Notes under the pieces: generated by a model
Told to the model about the DNA's origin: nothing
The model's input: only the letters and a program-made list of their open reading frames with translations
The model's database searches: none
DNA from: Eledone cirrhosa
Lineage: Eukaryota
Assembly: GCA_964016885.1 (NCBI GenBank)
Contig: OZ024742.1
Span: forward strand, 108,004,001-108,068,000
Length of the DNA stretch: 64,000 nt
Reading direction: 5' to 3'
Shown here: in pieces, positions 8,699 to 39,492 of the stretch
Layout of the letters: the number at the start of each line of letters is the position of its first letter
How positions within the stretch are numbered: position 1 is the first letter of the stretch
Made by a program: the position numbers and the translations under genes

Positions 8699-11186
8699 TT
8701 CTTCTGGTTTTATAATTTCACAAATGTTTGCCAATAGAGAGAGAGTCGGTTTCTAACATAGACACAAGACTCTCATTGGAATTTACACAACATCAACTAG
8801 ATAGATATGTATGTATGTATGCATGTGTAGATATGGATGTTATTGTATGTGTGGATGTGTATGTTTTGAGTTGTATGTGTGCATGTGTATATGCTTTGTA
8901 TCTGTACATGTGTATATGCAGTTATTAAATCCAACAGTTTTGGAATGTTTTACATATTTTTACTGTTTTACATATTTTTTTACATATTTTTACTTGTAAT
9001 TTCCTAACTAGTTGTGTTTTTTCTGTTCCCGCGAAGCCCAGCTTCTCAAGATTTGTATTGAGGCAGTTACTAACATATCCCAGTGCCCCAATAATCACAG
9101 GCATAAATCTGAAGGCATAGTCAGGGTGGAGTATCTGCAGATTTCTCATCAGTTAAATAAATATTCTCCTTTTCGCTAATCTTTGATATTATATTGGCAT
9201 CTGCTGGGCAGCTAACTTCCACTACTGTGCATGTCTTCTTTTTCCTGTGCCATATCATAATATCTGGTCTGTTATGCCTGCATTTTATTGGGGTTTTTAC
9301 TGGAACATTCCACCAGTACTCTTTCATATTATGTACATGGATGTCTTCCATGTTTATTATCGGGGCTATCTTTTTTACGAACTGCATTGTACAGTGTTTT
9401 GACGACTACATCATGCCTCATAGGTAGATAGTACCGCGATGACATCTTTGGACAGCTGTTGATGGCATGGGTGATATCCTCGATGTTAGTTCTGCAGAGT
9501 CTGCACTTGTTATCACACCTAGGTGTTTTGTATGCATCCCTATCTCTTTTGTGAATCAAGTATTTCGTGTTAATCTCCTGTTCTTGGATTGCAAAAGCGT
9601 ATCCTTCAAAGTGGGAGCCAATATAGCGGTTGTTGGTCCAAGATAGACTACTTTCCTTATCTATACTACTCTCACTCTGGAGCTTCCTGGCAACATATCC
9701 ATGCATGATCTATTGCTGATAAGCATGCAGTTTTTCATCCATGGATTCACTGCGATACTGCTGAGCGACATCCGTGGGTGTGAGTTTTTGATTATCACCC
9801 AGGGAATATCTCTCGAGGAGTTCCTTCCCAACTCTCATGATCTTATCTGTTTCATGCAGATAGACTTGCTCGAGAAACGGGCTCCTACGCTTCGAGGTTC
9901 GTAGATGTTGTCGGAGAGATATGATGCGACATTCAAATGTTGTCGGGACTGATGTTAGGCCTCTACCTCCCTTCTTACGTTTCAAATAAAGGCGGTCTAT
10001 GTCACTGTTGATGTGGAAGTTTCCGGTGTTCTTTAGTATTTTTCGAGTTCCAACATCAACTGCTCAGATTTCGTCTATCGTCCAATTGAGTATTCCAAAC
10101 GTTGGTGTTAGGACAGGCACAGCAAACACATTGTGAGCCACTGTTTTGTTTTGCGCATAGAGTTCCGATGACCAGATCTTTCTTAATCGGGTGTAGTATT
10201 CCCTGGTTACGCGTTCTTTATTACAGATACCATTATAGGATATGTTCTCATCTATCCCCAAGTATCTGTAGCAGTCTTCATCAGATATCGGTGAAACAGT
10301 TAGGCCATTGATGACAACGTTGCTAGATTGGGTTGTTGTTTTCCCCGCTTTACAGTAATGTATGAGCATTTATATTGGCCAAACTCCATTCCTATATCCT
10401 TTGAGAACGTTGTAAATAGGTCAAGATTTTTCTTCATGCCATCCATCTTCCTGGCATAGAGTTTCAGATCGTCCACAAAGAAATTATGGGTTAGGTTCGT
10501 ATTTCTGTCCTCCTGTGAGCCAATGATGTATCCCTCACATTTCTTAAGTAGAAAGGACAAGGGGTTTAATGACAAGATGAATAATATCGCAGAGACTGTC
10601 CCCCTGAAATATACCCCTGCAATATTTTATTTTATCAGTGAAAATAGAGTCCTCCCTCTCTGTCTTTAACCTTAGGATAGTAGCCTCTCTATAACTCTGA
10701 CAATAATGTCTGGGACTTTAGCAAGTTGGAGGGCCTCTATCATCCAAGAGTGGGGAACAGAATCGAAAGCTTTCCTGTAGTCCAGCCAGACTGTAGCCAT
10801 ATTCCTCTTAAGTTGTCGCACCTCCGACATCGCAGTTTTGTTGATTAGGAGTTGTTCAGCACATCCCCAAACCTCTTTCTTTCCAGCTGCTTGTTCATCT
10901 GTGATGATGTTATTATTTTCACAGTGATCTTGGAGGAATAGTTTCAGGCAGGCTGTATACATCTTATACATCAGGTTCTGGCATGCAATGGGTCGGTAGT
11001 TTTTTGCCAAGTGGGTGTCTTTGTTCCTGGAGACCAGTAATGTTTGTGCTAATGTCAACCATTCTGGTATAAGTGTATCTCCCTTAAGAACTTGTTGGTA
11101 GAGGTCAGTAAGATACCTCCAATAGAATATCAGTTTTTTGTACCAGTAGCCGATAATCATTTCTCTTCCTGGTGTTTTCTTATCTT
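8699..11186 (-). mobile_element. 5'-truncated R4/Dong-clade non-LTR retrotransposon (RT, CCHC finger, restriction-like endonuclease), frameshifted
   Basis: Minus-strand ORF pieces: YRPIACQN, WLDYRKAFDSVPHSW, RGIFQGDS, FFVDDLKLY, AIQEQEINT, CRLC..EDITHAINSC, MRHD, RPDIMIW..VVEVSCP, PVIIGALG. Both ends lie in (TACA)n. Confidence 0.9.
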
Positions 11187-11418
11187 GTATGTATGTATGT
11201 ATGTATGTATGTATGTATGTATGTATGTATGTATGTATGTATGTATGTATGTATGTATGTATGTATGCAGGATTTGAGCTCAGAGCATGGAGAGCCGTGA
11301 CTCTATGCTGTAAAGCAATTATAATAATACTGGACTCTAGTACGATCGGCTTCAACTATACAAACTCTTGAAAGTCAACAGTTGACATAATCTTGTAATC
11401 TTGTATCAGTAATGACGG

Positions 11419-11483
<65 letters not shown>

Positions 11484-11631
11484 TATATATGTGTGTGTGT
11501 GTGTAAGTGAGTAGAGTAGCGTGTGTGTGTTTGTTTGTATGTATGAGTGTTGCTGTGTGCGCGAATATGTATGCGTGTGTGTGTGTCGTACGTATAAGTG
11601 TCAATAAGTGATTTTTTTTTTTTTTTTTTTT

Positions 11632-14600
11632 GCGCGGGGACATAGAAATATTCGGGCTGGATGCCCGAACGCGCAGTTAAACCACTGGGAGTGAAGAACC
11701 TCTAGCCCTTGTCAGGGCATTCTTCTAGGAGAAGGCATCTCAGGAAACTGGGTTAACTCCGACATAAAACCTGCGGCTCAGTAGTTACCGATGATGTTGA
11801 TCTTTTCTTCTTTTCGGGTTATAGCTACTGTCGCTCAGAGAGTGGGATTGGCTCAGTGCACAGTCTTTCCTCACTTTAAAAACATTCGTCACGCACAGGC
11901 ATTGCACGAGTGCATTAATAATTATTAATAGTGTACTATTATTATTATTATTATTATTACTATTATTATTACTTTTTTTTTTTTTTTTTTCCAATTCAAT
12001 GATGTTCCAGAACAATATAAAAGAGATAATTGGCAATTTAGGTTCTGGAACAAAAAAGATCATTGGCAATAAGGGCTGTGGCCCCAGGTTATCACAGCCT
12101 GGGCCCGCTCGTCATCGTGCCATTGTAATAGAGCCAAACAAGGCATTTAGTCTTGGCTGCTGGAACGTACGGACGCTGCTTGACAGGAATTCCTTGGGGC
12201 GTCCTGAACGAAGGACCGCTCTTGTTGCAAAGGAGCTTCGACGTTACGATCTTGACATCGTGGCTTTATCTGAGACGAGGCTAGCTGGAGATGGTCATCT
12301 TACGGAATTTTGTGGAGAATATACATTCTTCTGGAAAGGAAGAGATGAAGGAACCAGAAGAGAGGCTGGGGTAGGATTTGCTGTTAAGACTGTGCTTGTG
12401 AACAAATTAGAAGAATTCCCAGCAGGGATTAATGAGCATCTTATGTCCATGAGAGTTCCGCTGGACAAGGGAAGATATGCTACCCTGGTGAGTGTGTATG
12501 CTCCAACTATGAGTTCTGTCGATGAGGAAAAGGTGTCATTTTACCATGCCTTGAAAGGTGTTTTAAGAAATATCCCTCAGGCAGACAAAGTCATCGTGCT
12601 TGGTGACTTTAATGCTAGAGTGGGTAGGGATGTTAACACATGGAATGTAATCGGAAGGCATGGGGTCGGAAAGTGTAACAGCAATGGTATGCTCCTGCTG
12701 CAGATGTGTGAGGAGCTGGATCTGTGTGTTACCAACACCATGTTCCAACAAAAGAACAAATTCAAGACCACATGGATGCATCCTGCATCTAAGGAATGGC
12801 ATCTTTTGGACTAGGTCCTAGTCAGGATGCGTGACAGACAGGATGTGCAGTGTGTTCGTGTTCTTCGTGGAGCTGAGTGCTGGACGGACCACCGCCTGGT
12901 ACGCGCAAAAGTGAAACTAATCACTAAACGTAAAATCCGGGCTCCTGGTGTTGCCCTGCCCAAAAGATTGAATGCTGCTCGTCTTAAGGATAAAAATGTG
13001 AAGAGGACATTGGAAGAGGAGATGCAGGCTGCAGATCTTGGTGAGGATTGGCCGACCCTTAAAAAGTCGGTTTATGATGTAGGCAGGCGTGTTCTGGGAT
13101 TGGCGCAGAGGAAACATCAGGACTGGTTTGATGAGAATGATGTACATATAGAAGACTTGTTGGCTGATAAGAGGCGTGCTCTGTCACGCTACTTGACGGA
13201 AAAACCACAGGAGAGGAATACGTTGCATGAGGAACTCAGGGATGTAAAATCACGTGTTAGGCGGAGTCTTTCTCAGATGAAGGATCAGTGGTGGAGTGAG
13301 AAGGCTGGTGAGATACAAACTGCGTCTGATTCCAATAACACAAAGCTGTTGTACAGTCTCTTGCGTGAGGTTTATGGACCGTCTTCTCTGGTGACACCGC
13401 TTCGCAGCAAGGATGGCAAAGAACTTATTCGTGACTCACAAGGAATTCTACGAAGGTGGCGAGAGCACTTTGATGATCTTTTGAATCAGTCGTCTATCGT
13501 CAGTGAAGATTTCCTCAATCTCATTCCAGAAAGTCCTGTGAAAGTAGCTCTCGCAGAACCTCCGACGCTTGTGGAGGTTGCAGTGGCTATTTCGAAGCTG
13601 AACAGTGGAAGATCTCCAGGTATGGATGGCATACATTCTGAGCTCCTACAATATGGTGGTGAGAGACTCCTGCAACATCTTCACTCTTTGTTTGGCAGGA
13701 TATGGGCTAATGAATCCGTACCTGAGGACCGGAAAGATGCAGTAATGGTGGTCTTGTACAAGGGAAAGGGTAACAGGAACGATTGTGGGAACTACAGAGG
13801 TATATCATTGCTTTCTGTCGTAGGGAAAGTTTTATGTAGGGTGCTTCTGGACCGTCTGCTGACACACATTGCAGATTGTGTTCTTCCTGAAAGTCAATCT
13901 GGTTTTCGTGCTGGACGCGGCACGACTGATATGATCTTCTCAGCTAGACAGCTCCAGGAGAAGTGCATGGAACAAGGCTTAGATCTGTATCAGGTTTTTG
14001 TCGATCTGACAAAAGCTTTCGATACCGTTAACAGAGATGCATTATGGAAGGTTCTCCAGAAACTTGGTTGCCCTGATAAGTTCCTTGCTTTAGTTAGGTC
14101 TTTCCATGACGACATGAAGGCTTGTTTAATGTCGGGGGTAACATGTCGGAGCCTATCTCAGTAAAAAATGGAGTGAAACAGGGGGATATTCCAGCACCGA
14201 CCCTGTTTGCCATATACTTTGCAATGGTTTTCTGTATTGCATTCAGGAATTGCGAGCATGGTGTTTACATCCGATATCGAACCTCAGGCAGCATATTTAA
14301 CATCAGGCGCTTTGCTGCGAAGACAAAAGTATTTACATCAATCATAAGAGACCTCTTGTATGCAGATGATTGCGATCTTGTAGCGCACACAGAGAGTGAT
14401 ATGCAGCACATTTTGAATACATTTTCTGACGCTTGCACTGCCCTAGGTCTGACTGTCAGTCTCAAGAAAACCGTCGTCATGTACCAACCTGCCCCTGGTA
14501 AGCAGTACACTGAACCAAACATCTATGTGTATGGCAAACGACTTGGAGTGGTTGATCAGTTTGTCTACCTGGGAAGCACTGTCGATCGATACAGCAACCT

Positions 14601-15737
14601 TGACAGTGAAATCTCACTTAGGATTAGGAAAGCAAGTGATGCTTTCGGAAAGCTAGAAAGGCGACTCTGGGGTCGGCGAGATATATGCAGGAGGACAAAG
14701 GTAAAGGTGTACAGGGCATGTGTGCTCTCTTGTCTTCTTTATGCCTGCGAGACCTGGGTCACATATCGACACCACCTTAAGCAATTGGAGCGTTTCCATC
14801 AGATGTGTCTGAGACGGATCCATGGCGTTCACTGGAGGGACCACATCAGTGATATCGAGATTTTGGAAAGCTCTATGTGTGACAGTACAGAAGCTCTTGT
14901 GCTTAAGCAACGATTCCGTTGGAGTGGTCACCTTGCCAGGATGAAGGCTTCTAGAATACCAAAACAACTCTTTTATGGAGAGTTGGTTAAAGGAAAACGA
15001 CCGCCACATAAACCAAAAAAGAGGTATAAGGATTCCTTGAAAGCCTCTCTGAAAGACGCTAACATCTCTGCTGATACATGGGAGAATATTGCTGCTGATC
15101 GTAATAAATGGAGAAAGACTGTATATGAGGGAAAGGTTGCCTTTGAGGCATCTCGAATCGCATACGAGAAAGTAAAGCGGGATGTGAGGAAGGGCATTGC
15201 TGTTGCACTTCCAGACGGTGAGGGTCCTCCTATGGTGCTGACATGCAGCGTATGTGCGACACTCTGCCTAAGCAAAGCTGGACTCGAAAGTCATCTTCGC
15301 AGTCATAAAGTATGACCAGTGGTTGACTACCAGGCTGCTGTTGGAGATGCTACTCATCATGCTTGCCAAACATGTGGTAGAGAATGTAAATCAGCAGGAG
15401 GGCTCAAGTGACATGCAAAAGTACACGAACTCCAACCACAGCCGACTATTCCCAGTGAATGTTTTGGTTGCCGACTCTGTGCAAGACATTTTAGATCATT
15501 GGCTGGGCTAGAAAGCCACATTCGATCGCAGCGCTGTTAGTTGCTATCGTGTGTGTGTGTGTGTGTGTGTGTAGATATGCTTATGTGCGTGCGTGTGTGT
15601 ATATATATATGTATATGTATATTATTATTGTTGTTGTCGTTATTATTATTGTTGTTATGATTATTATTATTATTATTGTTATTAATGTATGTGTGTGTGT
15701 GTGTGTGAGTGAGTGTGTGTGTGTGTGTATATGTGTA

Positions 15738-15820
<83 letters not shown>

Positions 15821-15950
15821 CTTTTCTTTTTTTTTTAAAATCCTTATTTTCTTTTTATTTATTTATTATTATTATTTTTTTTTCTTTCTCCTCGTGCAAT
15901 GGCCATACTCGATAACGAGGGGGCGGCCATCATGTATGTATGTATGTATG
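11632..15950 (+). mobile_element. Near full-length RTE-clade LINE with (TATG)n tail
   Basis: 5' UTR, single APE-RT reading frame, microsatellite-rich 3' UTR, terminal CTCG-ATAA-CGAG stem-loop and ATGT repeats. The 5' boundary is approximate. Confidence 0.92.
11999..15540 (+). pseudogene. RTE ORF: apurinic endonuclease, reverse transcriptase and three C2H2 zinc fingers; disrupted by three stops and one frameshift
   Basis: GCWNVRTL, LSETRL, LGDFNARVG, TDHRLV, YRGISLLS, QSGFR, FVDLTKAFD, GVKQGD, LYADD. TAG at 12812, frameshift near 14125, TGA at 15313 and 15409, final TAG at 15538. True start codon uncertain. Confidence 0.92.
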
Positions 15951-16557
15951 TCATGTCACCAGTTGGTGTTACTGGTAACATGTATCCCAGCACAACCTGT
16001 CTCATGGTCGGGTCGTAGGCGACTAAACTGGCAACCCCACCAACGTTTCTTGGTGAGGAGGGTGACTTTGGACATCCTGCAGGACTAAAAACAAAACCTG
16101 TCAAAAGGCAAAGGAGCTCTTAAGCGTCAATGGCCATCCAAAATCACCGGGAGAGATGACCCCTTAGCCTTTGTCAAGGCAGAATTCTATGAGAAGGAAA
16201 ACTCTGATAAAATACCTGCAACTCTGATGGTATCCAATGATGTTGACTTGTTCTTCTTTTTGGTAAATATCATCTTGGTTAAGAGAGTGGGACTGGCTTT
16301 GTGCAGTGCCTTTGCTCACTATAAAAGCTTCACAGCACAGGCATTTCTTTATATCTGGAGATCTTTCTGCACTTGTCATCACATGGTACCATGGGCCCAG
16401 CACTATGTGTCAATAATTGTCACAAGTGTAGTGTTTGTAACAGAGTTTTCAAGTCGCTGGCTGGACTAAAAAGTCACACTTGTTCAGCGCATCGGTAGGG
16501 TTCTCCTACATGGATATAAAGTAGTGGCCGTACTCGAAAACGAGTTGGCAGCCACCA
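15951..16557 (+). mobile_element. Longest copy of bipartite RTE family 1
   Basis: Extends about 215 bp further 5' than other copies and includes GTCGTAGGCGACTAA; sits directly in the RTE (TATG)n tail. Confidence 0.85.
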
Positions 16558-17351
16558 TGTATGTATGCATGTATGCACGTATAGATTGCACGTATAGATA
16601 TACATTATCAGTTCAGTCAATTATAGATTTTCATGAAATTTTATGGTGCAAAATACAAAACCTCATTATTATTTATATTATAAAGAAATGATTATTATAT
16701 TTAAATAAATACATAAAAATGATGAATATTCATATTTCTCTGCACCTCTTTGTAACATTATCATTAAAATTTTCATGATGGACATCATACTATCATCAAC
16801 ACCTTCATCAACAATAAACTTCACTAGTTTCACTTTAGATAAAGAGCTTGCGATAAATCACCAGCACTTGATTTAACAAGTGAACATATGTTAACCATTT
16901 AGCACGCATTATTTCAGTTAGGGCGGTGGATTGGCAGTACCGGTAGAGAGTCGGACGCCATGCTTTCCAGCATAGTTACGTCCCTTTACAGTCTGAGTTC
17001 AAATCCTGCCGATGTTGACTTTGCCTTTCATCCTTACGGGGTCGATAAACCACAGCCGACTATTCCCAGTGAATGTTTTGGTTGCCGACTCTGTGCAAGA
17101 CATTTTAGATCATTGGCTGGGCTAGAAAGCCACATTCGATCGCAGCGCTGTTAGTTGCTATCGTGTGTGTGTGTGTGTGTGTGTGTAGATATGCTTATGT
17201 GCGTGCGTGTGTGTATATATATATGTATATGTATATTATTATTGTTGTTGTCGTTATTATTATTGTTGTTATGATTATTATTATTATTATTGTTATTAAT
17301 GTATGTGTGTGTGTGTGTGTGAGTGAGTGTGTGTGTGTGTGTATATGTGTA

Positions 17352-17418
<67 letters not shown>

Positions 17419-17548
17419 CTTTTCTTTTTTTTTTTAAATCCTTATTTTCTTTTTATTTATTTATTATTATTATTTTTTTTTCTTTCTCCTCGTGCAATGG
17501 CCATACTCGATAACGAGGGGGCGGCCATCATGTATGTATGTATGTATG

Positions 17549-18155
17549 TCATGTCACCAGTTGGTGTTACTGGTAACATGTATCCCAGCACAACCTGTCT
17601 CATGGTCGGGTCGTAGGCGACTAAACTGGCAACCCCACCAACGTTTCTTGGTGAGGAGGGTGACTTTGGACATCCTGCAGGACTAAAAACAAAACCTGTC
17701 AAAAGGCAAAGGAGCTCTTAAGCGTCAATGGCCATCCAAAATCACCGGGAGAGATGACCCCTTAGCCTTTGTCAAGGCAGAATTCTATGAGAAGGAAAAC
17801 TCTGATAAAATACCTGCAACTCTGATGGTATCCAATGATGTTGACTTGTTCTTCTTTTTGGTAAATATCATCTTGGTTAAGAGAGTGGGACTGGCTTTGT
17901 GCAGTGCCTTTGCTCACTATAAAAGCTTCACAGCACAGGCATTTCTTTATATCTGGAGATCTTTCTGCACTTGTCATCACATGGTACCATGGGCCCAGCA
18001 CTATGTGTCAATAATTGTCACAAGTGTAGTGTTTGTAACAGAGTTTTCAAGTCGCTGGCTGGACTAAAAAGTCACACTTGTTCAGCGCATCGGTAGGGTT
18101 CTCCTACATGGATATAAAGTAGTGGCCGTACTCGAAAACGAGTTGGCAGCCACCA
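17549..18155 (+). mobile_element. Duplicate of 15951-16557
   Basis: Part of the tandem duplication. Confidence 0.85.
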
Positions 18156-18518
18156 TGTATGTATGCATGTATGCACGTATAGATTGCACGTATAGATATA
18201 CATTATCAGTTCAGTCAATTATAGATTTTCATGAAATTTTATGGTGCAAAATACAAAACCTCATTATTATTTATATTATAAAGAAATGATTATTATATTT
18301 AAATAAATACATAAAAATGATGAATATTCATATTTCTCTGCACCTCTTTGTAACATTATCATTAAAATTTTCATGATGGACATCATACTATCATCAACAC
18401 CTTCATCAACAATAAACTTCACTAGTTTCACTTTAGATAAAGAGCTTGCGATAAATCACCAGCACTTGATTTAACAAGTGAACATATGTTAACCATTTAG
18501 CACGCATTATTTCAGTTA

Positions 18519-18709
18519 GGGCGGTGGATTGGCAGTACCGGTAGAGAGTCGGACGCCATGCTTTCCAGCATAGTTACGTCCCTTTACAGTCTGAGTTCAA
18601 ATCCTGCCGATGTTGACTTTGCCTTTCATCCTTACGGGGTCGATAAAATAAAGTACCAGTAATGCACTGGGTATTTGCTGGCCTTGTGCCTAAAGTAGAA
18701 ACAATTATT
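18519..18709 (+). mobile_element. tRNA-derived SINE with a Meta/Sauria-like central domain; the most abundant family here
   Basis: Head TGGATTGGCAG...GAGTTCAAATCC (A/B boxes), core GCCTTTCATCCTTACGGGGTCGATAAAATAAAGTACCAG, ATT-type tail. Other copies near 16920, 19935, 20941, 21052, 23681, 24800, 25750, 42574, 48295 and 60425. Confidence 0.85.
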
Positions 18710-34995: not shown

Positions 34996-35577
34996 TTTGT
35001 CTCTGTGTGTGTGTGTTCGCGCGTGTATGTTGTCGATCTATATTACACTAGCTGTAAGTACAGATATTTGCTCGAATTCCGAAATAATTGAAACAAATTA
35101 CACCGGTAAATTGTAAAACATTTTAGAAATAGAGATCTTGAATCTGAATATATTTATGATTGCATCAAAATTATGCCTAATATACAAGAGTATCTTTCAA
35201 GGAAGACGAAATACTAAATCTTTAGTCCTAATACTTTGCTATAAACAATTTAGTGGATGTGGGGGAAATATTTGCAACGACTTTCTTTAGCCATATTTTG
35301 AAATCTCCATATAGATATGGCAAGACGCCAAAGAATGGAAAATGAGATCTCAGAAAACTACAACATAAATAATTTAGATATACTTGTACTCTTTTACTAG
35401 TTTCAGTCATTGGACTATGGTCAGTTTGGAGTATTGCCTTGATATAGTAGTCGATCATGTAGAACTCAGTATTTATCTTATCAAGTCTGCTCTCGTATTT
35501 ATTTTATCGATCTCGTACCCAAACTCAAAGTTACAGGAAATAAACACAGACACATGCACACAGACACACATATTATA

Positions 35578-35967
35578 TGGTGGCTGCCAACTCGTTTTCG
35601 AGTACGGTCACTACTTTATATCCATGTAGGAGAACCCCTACCGATGCGCTGAACGAGTGTGACTTTTTAGTCCAGCCAGCGACTAGAAAACTCTGGTACA
35701 AACACTACACTTGTGACAATTATTGACACATAGTGCTGGGCCCATGGTACCATGTGACGACAAGTGCAGAGAGATCTCCATATATAAAGCAATGCCTGTG
35801 CCGTGCAGCTTTTATAGTGAGCAAAGGCACTGCACAAAGCCAGTCCCACTCTCTTAACCAAGATGATATTTACCAAAAAGAAGAACAAGTCAACATCATT
35901 GGATACCATTAGGGTTGCAGGTGTTATATCAGAGTTTTCCTTCTCCTAGAATTCTGCCTTGACAAAG
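35578..35967 (-). mobile_element. Bipartite RTE family 1 copy
   Basis: Near-identical reverse complement of 7151-7540. Confidence 0.9.
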
Positions 35968-36117
35968 TATGTATATATATATATACATACACACACACAT
36001 ACACATATGCATAAATACATAGATATATACATACATACATCATTTTACGTCCGCTTTTCCCTGCTTGCAAGGGTTATATACACATACATATGCATATACA
36101 TACATATATAGATGCAT

Positions 36118-36194
<77 letters not shown>

Positions 36195-36489
36195 CACATA
36201 GATATATACTTACATACATAGATATTTACATATATATATATACACACACATACATACACACTCATACACATATGCATAAATATATACATACATACATAGA
36301 TATATTTGTATGTATATATATATATGTATATATACATACACATACATACGCATATACGTAGGTATATAGATACATACATACATAGATATATACATATATA
36401 TATATACACACACACACATACACACTCATACACATATACATAGATATATACATACATACACAGATATATAGACATACATACATAGATAC

Positions 36490-36536
<47 letters not shown>

Positions 36537-36687
36537 CACACACACATACATACTCATACACATATACATAGATATATATATACATACATATATACATACA
36601 TACACACACACATATATATATATATATATATTTCGTTTCTGAATTTGTTTAGCAAGATTCTTTATCTGAAAACGTGTGTTCAAACCG

Positions 36688-37088
36688 ATATTGTTATGCT
36701 TTGGGAGGGTCATGTTGCCAATAAGAAACACACGCACCAGTCGCTTTCACTCCAATTTATTATAAACTAAATTTATAAATTTAAGAATTTATAAATCTCC
36801 GGTTGGTTGGCTGGTTCCACAATCTGACGGTTGCTCATACATTGTCAATGGCGTAGGACAGTACAAAGGAGAGGCACAAAACAAAGAAAAGAATCCCTTG
36901 TCACTGAAGAGGTCACAGAATGTGTGACGAAAGAACTTTGACAATATATGAACAACCGTCCGGCTATGGAACCAACCAAACAACGGGAAATTTATAAACT
37001 CTTAGATTTATAAATTTTATTTATAATAAATTGGAGTGAAAGCGACCGGTGCGTGTGCTTCTTATTGGCAACATGACCCTCCCAAAGC

Positions 37089-37098
<10 letters not shown>
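36688..37098. mobile_element. Penelope-like fold-back, arms about 160 bp, hammerhead core in the loop
   Basis: 36688-36848 is a reverse complement of 36938-37098; followed by (TA)n. Confidence 0.88.
36898..36944 (+). ncRNA. Minimal type I hammerhead ribozyme
   Basis: TTGTCA-CTGAAGA-G-GTCACA gaatg TGTGAC-GAAA-GAAC-TT^TGACAA. Confidence 0.72.
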
Positions 37099-37136
<38 letters not shown>

Positions 37137-37142
<6 letters not shown>

Positions 37143-38654
37143 CACACGAAGGTAATTTCAAAAACGACAATATATCAAAATAAATTATAATTTGTCCCTC
37201 AACGAAATGAAAACATCTTTGGCGATCTCAAAAACAGTCGCGATTCTCTGCTGGTTGAGAAGTTCCTGCTTAGTTTGGGCCATTTCTAGCCTCGATTCCT
37301 CCTTTTCTAGCAGTAATAGGGACCTGTGGTGGTCCTGGCAGTCGTGGGAGGGCGTGGACCATGATGTGGGAGCCGGAAACGGCGCAAGGGTCATACTTGA
37401 GGACGACGTTGAAGAGGCGTGGGACTTTAGTCTTTTGTGAGAAGGCGGGGCCGAACATGAATCGTGTTCCTGGTGGTGGTAGTTGTCATTGTGATGATGA
37501 TGATGTTGTTGTTGTTGTTATTGTTGTTGTGATGAAGGTGGCGTTGGGGTCGATGTCGATGTTGTTGTTCCCGCCGTGGTGGTGGTGTGGGAGTAGGCAG
37601 CGTGGGCGGCAGACAGGTGACCCACGTTCAAACCCAAGCCAGACCCGATGTTATTACTGGTAGTACCACCACCACCATTACTGCTGCTGCTGCTGCCGCT
37701 ACTACTGCAAGCTGTGAAACCACTGCCGAGTTGCTGCTGCTGCTGCTGTTGCGAAAGACCACCACCACTACTACTACTGTTACTACTACAACCACCACCA
37801 CCACCACCACCACCACCACCACCACCAAGGTGGTTGTGGTATGAAGAAGACAGTGACCCCGCTCCGCCGCCACCGCCACCACCATTGCTTGAGAACATGC
37901 TGGCCTGACAGAGGGCGGTGAGGGCGATGGTGGCGACGGCCGTGGTCTGTGAAGAAATCGCTGTTGTTAAATCATTGCTGCTGCTGTTGTTGTTGTTGTT
38001 ATTGCTGTTGCTGTGGTGGCGGTGGTGGTGTTGTTGTTGTTCGTAGTCAGTTTTTATCTCAGGGCTTATACCACCACCACCACCACCACCACCACCACCA
38101 CCACCACCACCACCGCAACACCCCCTCCAGGGATAATTGTAGTAGTGGTGGTGGTGTCGTCGTCACTCGTGGAGGAGACTTCATGTTTGGGACTGATACA
38201 GAAGTCAAAGCTTTTGTTTCCTTCTCGTCTGTTGCTGTCGTTGTCGTCGTCGATAGACGGTGTAGATCCCTGCCGTCGTCGGTGACCCTCGGCCATGCTG
38301 TTTATGCTGTCGATTTCTAGCTTGTCCTCCTTCGTCTTCATATTTCCACCACCCGTGTCCTCCAGATATCTTGGACGGTGACAATGTCCTCAACATTGAC
38401 GAGAAAGATGAAGAAGATGATGGAGAAGAAAACGAAGGATTTGCGGTCCATGTGCGGCGACAGAGGAGCGTCAGACTATGGCGGGAGCGGTTGCTAACAG
38501 GCCCGCCGTCGTCATTAGACCACCACCAACAACAACAACAACAACAGCAACATATGGCCACCACCCACGACCAACACCAAGGCCACCTTATCGTTGTCAG
38601 TCCTGGGGGTACCACCACCACCATACCACCACCACCACCACCACCACCACCACC

Positions 38655-38703
<49 letters not shown>

Positions 38704-38864
38704 GCCTCCGCCGCCGCCGCCATCACACACCAGAACAACCCTGATCATCATCCCGACCCCCTCGGGTCCTCAGCAGCCCCCCCCCGGTACCCGTTTCTCT
38801 CCACGTGCCGGGGTCACTCGACTCCCTACCGATAACCCTGTCGGTGCAGTCGTTACCCACATAT
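37137..38864. pseudogene. Probable retrocopy of a host low-complexity (poly-Q/G/H/P) protein gene, with a 5' inversion
   Basis: 38369 down to 37185 is coding-like on the minus strand (ends ...RIATVFEIAKDVFISLRDKL*); 38366-38864 is coding-like on the plus strand. In-frame TAA in poly-Q at 37518-37520 and several frameshifts. Parent gene not recognised. Confidence 0.65.
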
Positions 38865-38872
38865 TATATACA

Positions 38873-39492
38873 TGGTGGCTGCCAACTCGTTTTCGAGTAC
38901 GGCCACTACTTTATATCCATGTAGGAGAACCCCTACCGATGCGCTGAACGAATGTGACCTTTTAGTCCAGCCAGTGACTTGAAAACTCTGGTACAAACAC
39001 TACACTTGTGACAATTACTGACACATACATATATACAAACATACATACATACATATATCTCGGGAATTTTATCCGCCCTAGATAGATAGATGGTGGCTGC
39101 CAACTCGTTTTCGAGTACGGCCACTACTTTATATCCATGTAGGAGAAACCCTACCGATGCGCTGAACGAGTGTGACTTTTTAGTCCAGCCAGCGACTTGA
39201 AAACTCTGGTACAAACACTACACTTGTGACAATTATTGACACATAGTGCTGGGCCCATGGTACCATGTGACGACAAGTGCAGAGAGATCTCCAGATATAA
39301 AGCAATGCCTGTGCCGTGAAGCTTTTATAGTGAGCAAAGGCACTGCACAAAGCCAGTCCCACTCTCTTAACCAAGATGATATTTACCAAAAAGAAGAACA
39401 AGTCAACATCATTGGATACCATCAGGGTTGCAGGTGTTATATCAGAGTTTTCCTTCTCCTAGAATTCTGCCTTGACAAAGGACAAAGGCTAA
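38873..39492 (-). mobile_element. Two adjacent bipartite RTE family 1 copies (38873-39027 and 39091-39492)
   Basis: Reverse complement matches to 7149-7540. Confidence 0.9.

Follow-up and report, generated by a model that had tools for sequence, protein, structure and literature searches.

The segment at 37137-38864 of the window (the whole 64,000-nucleotide stretch of Eledone cirrhosa DNA analysed here) is a GC-rich island of trinucleotide repeats, surrounded by animal DNA that is rich in microsatellites. Sequence comparison identifies it as a 5'-truncated and 5'-inverted copy of a Myb/SANT gene located on contig C27. The copy probably arose in one RTE-driven retrotransposition with twin priming, in which the transcript was tailed by a short element, here called X, contributed by an earlier or allelic X or through a template switch.

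The inverted copy and its parent gene

The uninverted parent was found by searches of the animal's own genome at G000:C27:18560062-18557177 (minus strand), where it forms an unbroken frame of 961 codons, and a further copy is present on contig C2. The parent coding region has no intron and its frame is unbroken across the copied part. The encoded protein carries a Myb_DNA-bind_5 domain (residues 20-96, E 1.8e-15). An HMMER search found an ortholog of 490 aa, in a cluster that includes a Sepia pharaonis protein; it has landmarks in common with the parent from the first residues to the last, and the parent is therefore a conserved host gene. As an example, the peptide EKLEIVS is present in the ortholog in the same context as in the parent. 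The parent has 961 codons against 490 in the ortholog by way of trinucleotide-repeat expansion. A paralogous source gene was ruled out: the Myb part is single-copy in the genome, and the 3' end has no closer copy among the loci found.

The strand switch of coding-like DNA described in the original prediction was confirmed, and the host-gene origin, the twin-priming geometry and the lack of poly(A) are all supported (Table 1). The GATATC palindrome at 38365-38370, which had been taken as the breakpoint, instead lies within the inverted block, and positions 38331-38370 align to the parent in plus orientation. The plus block stops at 38858, with 38859-38864 belonging to the flanking DNA. An in-frame rejoining of the two blocks had also been proposed and the joined frame is indeed open; because the breakpoint is at about 38329 and not at GATATC, this join is an artefact and the true join is out of frame. 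The proposed frame stays open only by taking in 6 flanking nt and 35 nt of antisense (net 39 nt), and its peptide LEDTGGGNMKTK is an antisense reading of parent codons about 345-356.

Table 1. Positions in the window of the features that make up the insertion and its flanks
Feature	Position	Strand	Remarks
Inverted 5' block	38326/31-38858	+	Parent codons about 343-528; blastn and tblastn against the C27 and C2 copies
Inversion junction	38326..38330 (about 38329)		2 nt exact microhomology; 4/5 nt against the present parent
Non-inverted part	37185..38330	-	Parent codons 530-961 and stop
47 nt after the stop, then (TA)n	37095..37184	-	Both also in the parent
Fold-back, putatively Penelope-derived, 466 bp	36630..37095		Nested in the copied (TA)n
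Parent-derived microsatellite spacer	35968..36629	-	24-mer sharing with the parent; contains a 37-bp SINE-tail fragment, 36038-36074
5' direct repeat, 12 bp	38858..38869		CACATATTATAT on +; 1 nt common with the inverted block
3' direct repeat, 12 bp	35567..35578		X end followed by the 12-mer occurs once in the genome
X copy, 5'-truncated	35579..35967	-	3' end flush with the direct repeat; same sense as the copied gene
Separate short X copy, outside the insertion	38870..39027	-	Adjoins the 5' repeat
Separate X copy, flanked by a 12-bp direct repeat of its own	39087..39487	-	Sequence match

The inverted block is the 5' part of the copy and abuts the 5' target duplication at 38858. The inverted and forward blocks were adjacent in the RNA, as the 2 nt that separate them in the C2 copy are absent from the window. 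One frameshift is found in the inverted block, within a CCA/CAA tract, and the non-inverted part contains a frameshift near 38117-38132 and a nonsense codon at 37518-37520. With two frameshifts and one in-frame stop in total, the window copy is dead and makes no new protein.

The original prediction had named misassembly as a possible source of the junction. The junction is not an assembly error because contigs from three of four runs span 38181-38530 without a differing letter, these three runs representing one sample that is possibly the assembled one. Furthermore, 182 of 1171 aligned sites differ between the window copy and the parent, and an A tract is absent at both candidate 3' ends. These observations speak against an assembly artefact or an ordinary poly(A)-primed, L1-type retrocopy with a decayed tail. 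The available parts of PMC4245944 and PMC2912911 document twin priming best for L1, but we regard either of these explanations as scarcely credible.

Boundaries of the insertion and the nested fold-back

The insertion spans 35579-38857 and is bounded by 12-bp direct repeats. Within the window, the 12-mer CACATATTATAT was observed at two places only (38858 and 35567), and the combination of an X end with this 12-mer is unique among the 25,939 exact X ends of the genome. The repeat is likely to be a target-site duplication. In the accessible text of PMC4245944 and PMC6007223, target duplications of RTE elements peak at 10-12 bp, a range that includes the 12 bp found here.

In line with the original prediction, the stop codon (37185-37187, minus strand) is followed, after 47 nt, by (TA)n at 37095-37137 with no A tail, and a fold-back lies beside it (36688-36848/36938-37098). 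The prediction had placed the end of the insertion at this (TA)n, whereas the end was found about 1.55 kb further on, at 35579. It had also suggested that Penelope machinery retroposed the mRNA into (TA)n, and had named beforehand, as the result that would speak against this, a (TA)n at the same position in the parent; the parent was found to have (TA)n at exactly this place, 47 nt from its stop, leaving Penelope unsupported as the driver. Penelope-like elements do favour (TA)n and can move host genes, according to the part of PMC8557442 that was accessible, and modest sequence evidence suggests that the fold-back itself is Penelope-derived. Against a Penelope-driven event stand, besides the parental (TA)n, the position of the fold-back inside parent-derived sequence, its absence from every other Myb copy and the clean 12-bp duplication in a target that is not (TA)n. 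A Penelope end at the insert boundary, with (TA)n as target DNA, would be expected of such an event and was not observed. We consider this origin most improbable.

Beyond the fold-back, the window contains interrupted microsatellite words specific to the parent, 49 and 42 nt long. Matches to the parent were found for 53 of 451 spacer 24-mers; 40 control tracts gave no more than 2 of 112. A first spacer test with 12-mers gave 0.66 for the window with 3 of 24 controls higher, and the test that separates spacer from controls is limited to interrupted 16-24-mers. Since the parent-derived microsatellite continues past the fold-back, the fold-back is nested inside the copy and is likely to be a later insertion into it.

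The fold-back is an independent repeat with whole-length copies elsewhere (3303 candidates, of which 40 were scored), and all five of the other whole copies inspected sit in (TA)n without Myb sequence. At one of six other loci fetched, the repeat lies downstream of a frame with a weak GIY-YIG match, just under the cut-off; a second Penelope-like frame gave no Pfam match. Searches of Rfam returned sub-threshold microsatellite matches only and no hammerhead. Fold-backs were observed at related loci as well: at L023:3450-3650 another fold-back lies in the (TA)n of a copied spacer, paralleling the nested one in the window, and several fold-back repeats in (TA)n are present upstream of the parent gene (L020:2400-3760).

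The 37-bp SINE tail was ruled out as the mobilising end, as it lies inside the spacer and differs from the SINE variant of the parent. The placement of the cluster within one old SINE, which a resemblance had suggested, was also rejected, with no joined halves among the loci examined. A perfect 24-nt palindrome (35968-35991) is located directly before the junction of the window X.

Element X and the sibling insertions

Element X is about 610 nt long, and its copies differ from the majority sequence by 0.3-3.8% (18 copies). It contains a conserved 15-nt motif of the RTE 5'UTR, which occurs 74 times as an RTE 5' part in the accessible portion of the supplement of PMC5786205. Compared with the LINE at window 11630-15930, its 5'UTR is 69% identical over 226 columns and its 3' end matches at 28 of 34 nt. 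X also keeps a zinc-finger-like (C2H2-like) peptide remnant similar to one in the endonuclease-RT LINE. By these features X appears to be a bipartite, non-autonomous, RTE-derived element. The autonomous partner of X was not found. The reverse transcriptase of the window LINE, a putative RTE element, gave matches to RVT_1 clusters only. The predicted 3' stem-loops of X and of the LINE fold no better than shuffled sequences (z -0.78 and -1.04). None of the 40 top-scoring loci of this LINE was observed to have an opposite-strand piece, in a sample biased to long copies of a family that is only a relative of the partner of X; this result counts against inversion being frequent among RTE elements at large.

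The LINE at 11630-15930 is near full length, with one stop and one frameshift, and has many copies of 96-98%; six of the 40 scored loci stop at query positions 2468-2488. A tandem duplication of about 1.6 kb at window 15440-18660 includes a full X copy together with the 3' end of the LINE. Window 9329-11355 (minus strand) contains broken-up frames of another retrotransposon, perhaps R4/Dong-like.

The parent gene is followed 7 kb downstream by another X of the same sense, located after 14 extra tandem units. This parent X carries an 11-bp repeat of its own, and its fold-back 5' junction is unique. It begins with an inverted duplication (L019:945-1043) for which folding predicts a long, almost perfect hairpin (-82.7 kcal/mol, z -17.7). 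This duplication may have arisen by twin priming or snap-back and, if transcribed, would give double-stranded RNA. The 14 tandem units (L019:1594-8130, downstream of the parent) show a higher-order repeat of about 3.2 kb, each unit being composed of the last approximately 12 codons of the gene, the stop, UTR and microsatellite. Between 0 and 2 or more of the extra units are held by the retrocopies, and these numbers may record the growth of the parent array.

The parent X junction occurs at ten places, namely the parent and nine dispersed loci, seven of which carry the 3' end of the gene and two of which carry spacer only. At least eight dispersed loci bear the gene's 3' end (the seven siblings and the window), a lower bound from the best-scoring candidates, and seven of the eight carry the junction of the parent X. 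The eighth, the window copy, likewise ends in a same-sense X, but one without a fold-back at 35967 and hence without the source junction. Truncation at the 5' end affects all copies, the gene-bearing siblings included, at differing points, and they are spread over five contigs. In the C2 copy a later LINE lies between the gene and X. The background density of X is one copy in 111,840 bp (22 control loci).

A source copy with its own duplication, together with a diagnostic junction on nine dispersed siblings, is the pattern of 5' transduction from one source. Because the unique junction of the parent X is common to all nine, they are likely, on this sequence evidence, to derive from the C27 locus by 5' transduction. 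Read-through from C27 would be the simple reading for the siblings, which point to read-through over template switching. For the window copy, an X without the fold-back gives no sign of read-through from the present C27 locus.

Two siblings, L024 and L025, are also 5'-inverted, with two blocks that are adjacent in the parent and an outer end at the direct repeat, giving three inverted insertions in ten. In L025 the two blocks meet within an (AT)n tract, the inverted one reaching parent position L019:1519 and the forward one setting in at 1525. For L024 the forward block sets in at 1116, which by eye is also where the inverted block stops, the aligner having run on into flanking (TA)n; a 16-nt filler in this copy matches the parent coding region, though it is of low complexity. 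Microhomology at the internal (second) priming site is 1 nt in the window, while (AT)n tracts are found there in L024 and L025. Sibling direct repeats are 8-24 nt long, lie in microsatellite and are individually weak.

This set bears on whether the copy could have formed at the DNA level, by duplication of the C27 3' region followed by local inversion. Loss of introns cannot be demonstrated for the window copy because the parent coding region has none, and tandem duplication does occur at the 3' end of the parent, both of which leave room for such an origin. The 3' end is nevertheless fixed at X while the 5' ends vary between flanking direct repeats, the outer inversion breakpoint is at the repeat in all three inverted copies, and no copy contains parent sequence beyond the end of X. 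A DNA-level origin is therefore very unlikely in our estimate.

A closer competitor is the same twin-primed retrocopy with its 12-bp duplication as an older event independent of X, in which a non-LTR reverse transcriptase was primed on the (UA)n of the 3' UTR and X was inserted later at the same nick site. The Myb part of the copy is more diverged than its X: private changes number 31 of 641 sites in the window and 8 of 641 in the C2 copy, against 5 of 391 from the consensus in the window X (Fisher p=0.002 for the contrast of Myb part and X, unpolarised). The window copy is also the longest branch among three dead copies, with 13 private changes in 278 sites where the other two have 3 and 1. 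Since the copy lacks the fold-back and is seemingly older than its X, the window X may have been added later. Furthermore, X copies often lie within earlier tails and another X is located 4 nt from the 5' repeat. Under a stricter mask the age difference is not significant (9 of 358 private changes, p=0.28). The older, X-free event also requires a later insertion exactly at the repeat boundary without a proper duplication of its own (the window X has none at its own 5' side), and an X tail is present on all seven other dispersed loci that bear the gene's 3' end. We view the older event as a tentative alternative that is rather unlikely. All readings other than this event and the X-tailed one are, even jointly, improbable.

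The distances themselves need some care. Against two dead copies the parent has 19 private changes in 358 sites. Of these, 14 are synonymous, 15 lead to G/C and none leads to A/T; this GC-biased change explains much of the distance between parent and copies. Part of the 31 private changes may thus reflect the parent's own GC-biased drift or CpG decay. Eight of the nine strict-mask private changes of the window copy are non-synonymous, and the copy has a 24-nt coding segment that is missing from the others. Frozen RNA editing was rejected, with five A>G among 28 private changes and no clear A-to-G excess.

A proposed mechanism and its relation to known systems

In the favoured X-tailed event, RNA of the gene would run through the microsatellite into X, or the enzyme would start on X RNA and then switch to the RNA of the gene. 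By either route X would supply a 3' end recognised by the RTE protein, so that poly(A) would not be needed. As the C27 junction is absent, the window copy would trace back to an X that was earlier or allelic, or else to a template switch. The first nick would prime at the X end, and the second, 12 nt away, would prime inside the coding region at codon 528, with copying back to codon 343. The two cDNAs would then join at 2-5 nt of microhomology. The observed arrangement begins with the repeat and the inverted block, continues with the forward block, the spacer and X, and closes with the second repeat; 2 nt are missing where the blocks meet. Later arrivals would be the Penelope fold-back and the SINE-tail fragment.

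Twin priming is reportedly due to Ostertag and Kazazian, who in 2001 are said to have described it for 5'-inverted L1 insertions; mRNA retrocopies formed in this way are known as well. The window copy resembles L1 twin priming, as presented in the available sections of PMC2912911 and PMC4245944, in that the inverted 5' block is flush with the target duplication, the blocks are adjacent in the RNA, the inner junction has microhomology and the duplication falls within 10-20 bp. It differs in having no poly(A), in a 3' end formed by an RTE-derived element and in its invertebrate host. In human cells, 5' inversions were seen only with L1, bar one Nimb-2 insert, in a test that included no RTE (PMC4245944, in the part at hand).

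The sibling set is similar to the SVA 5' transduction groups of PMC12593883, where, in the sections available, a non-autonomous element carries upstream host sequence from one source copy into several insertions and sits downstream of a host promoter. Unlike SVA, the carrier here is a bipartite RTE without poly(A), its cargo comes from the 3' end of a protein-coding gene, two of nine siblings are inverted and the source junction is absent from the window copy. X itself is built like RTESINE1/2, MAR4, WALLSI3 and Bov-A, which the accessible text of PMC5786205 and PMC3747384 describes as an RTE 5'UTR joined to a 3' end, with no full ORF and a microsatellite tail, but it belongs to a different family. 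In addition, the U6/RTE and RNA/L1 template-switch chimeras, as far as PMC4476161 and PMC13174262 could be consulted, share host RNA 5' of a truncated retroelement within one duplication; unlike these, the cargo here is a long part of an mRNA with an internal inversion.

According to the portions of PMC4245944 and PMC3747384 that were available, stringent LINEs need their own 3' end and are therefore not expected to mobilise ordinary mRNA, and twin priming has been described almost only for mammalian L1. Our literature search, which mainly covered main texts outside the subscription journals, turned up no account of twin priming by RTE elements or of 5' transduction by RTE in molluscs. The insertion set is small and traceable, and one source locus with ten dated products suggests how an RTE system evades both limits. 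On balance, we consider it slightly more probable than not that a stringent non-L1 (RTE) reverse transcriptase twin-primes host-gene RNA, and that an X in its 3' region has turned a conserved cephalopod gene into a repeated donor of retrocopies without poly(A) (ten insertions, three of them 5'-inverted), with the microsatellite-rich UTR giving internal priming sites. If this is true, twin priming by RTE elements on host RNA would generate retrocopies and inversions quite generally wherever such elements dominate the genome.
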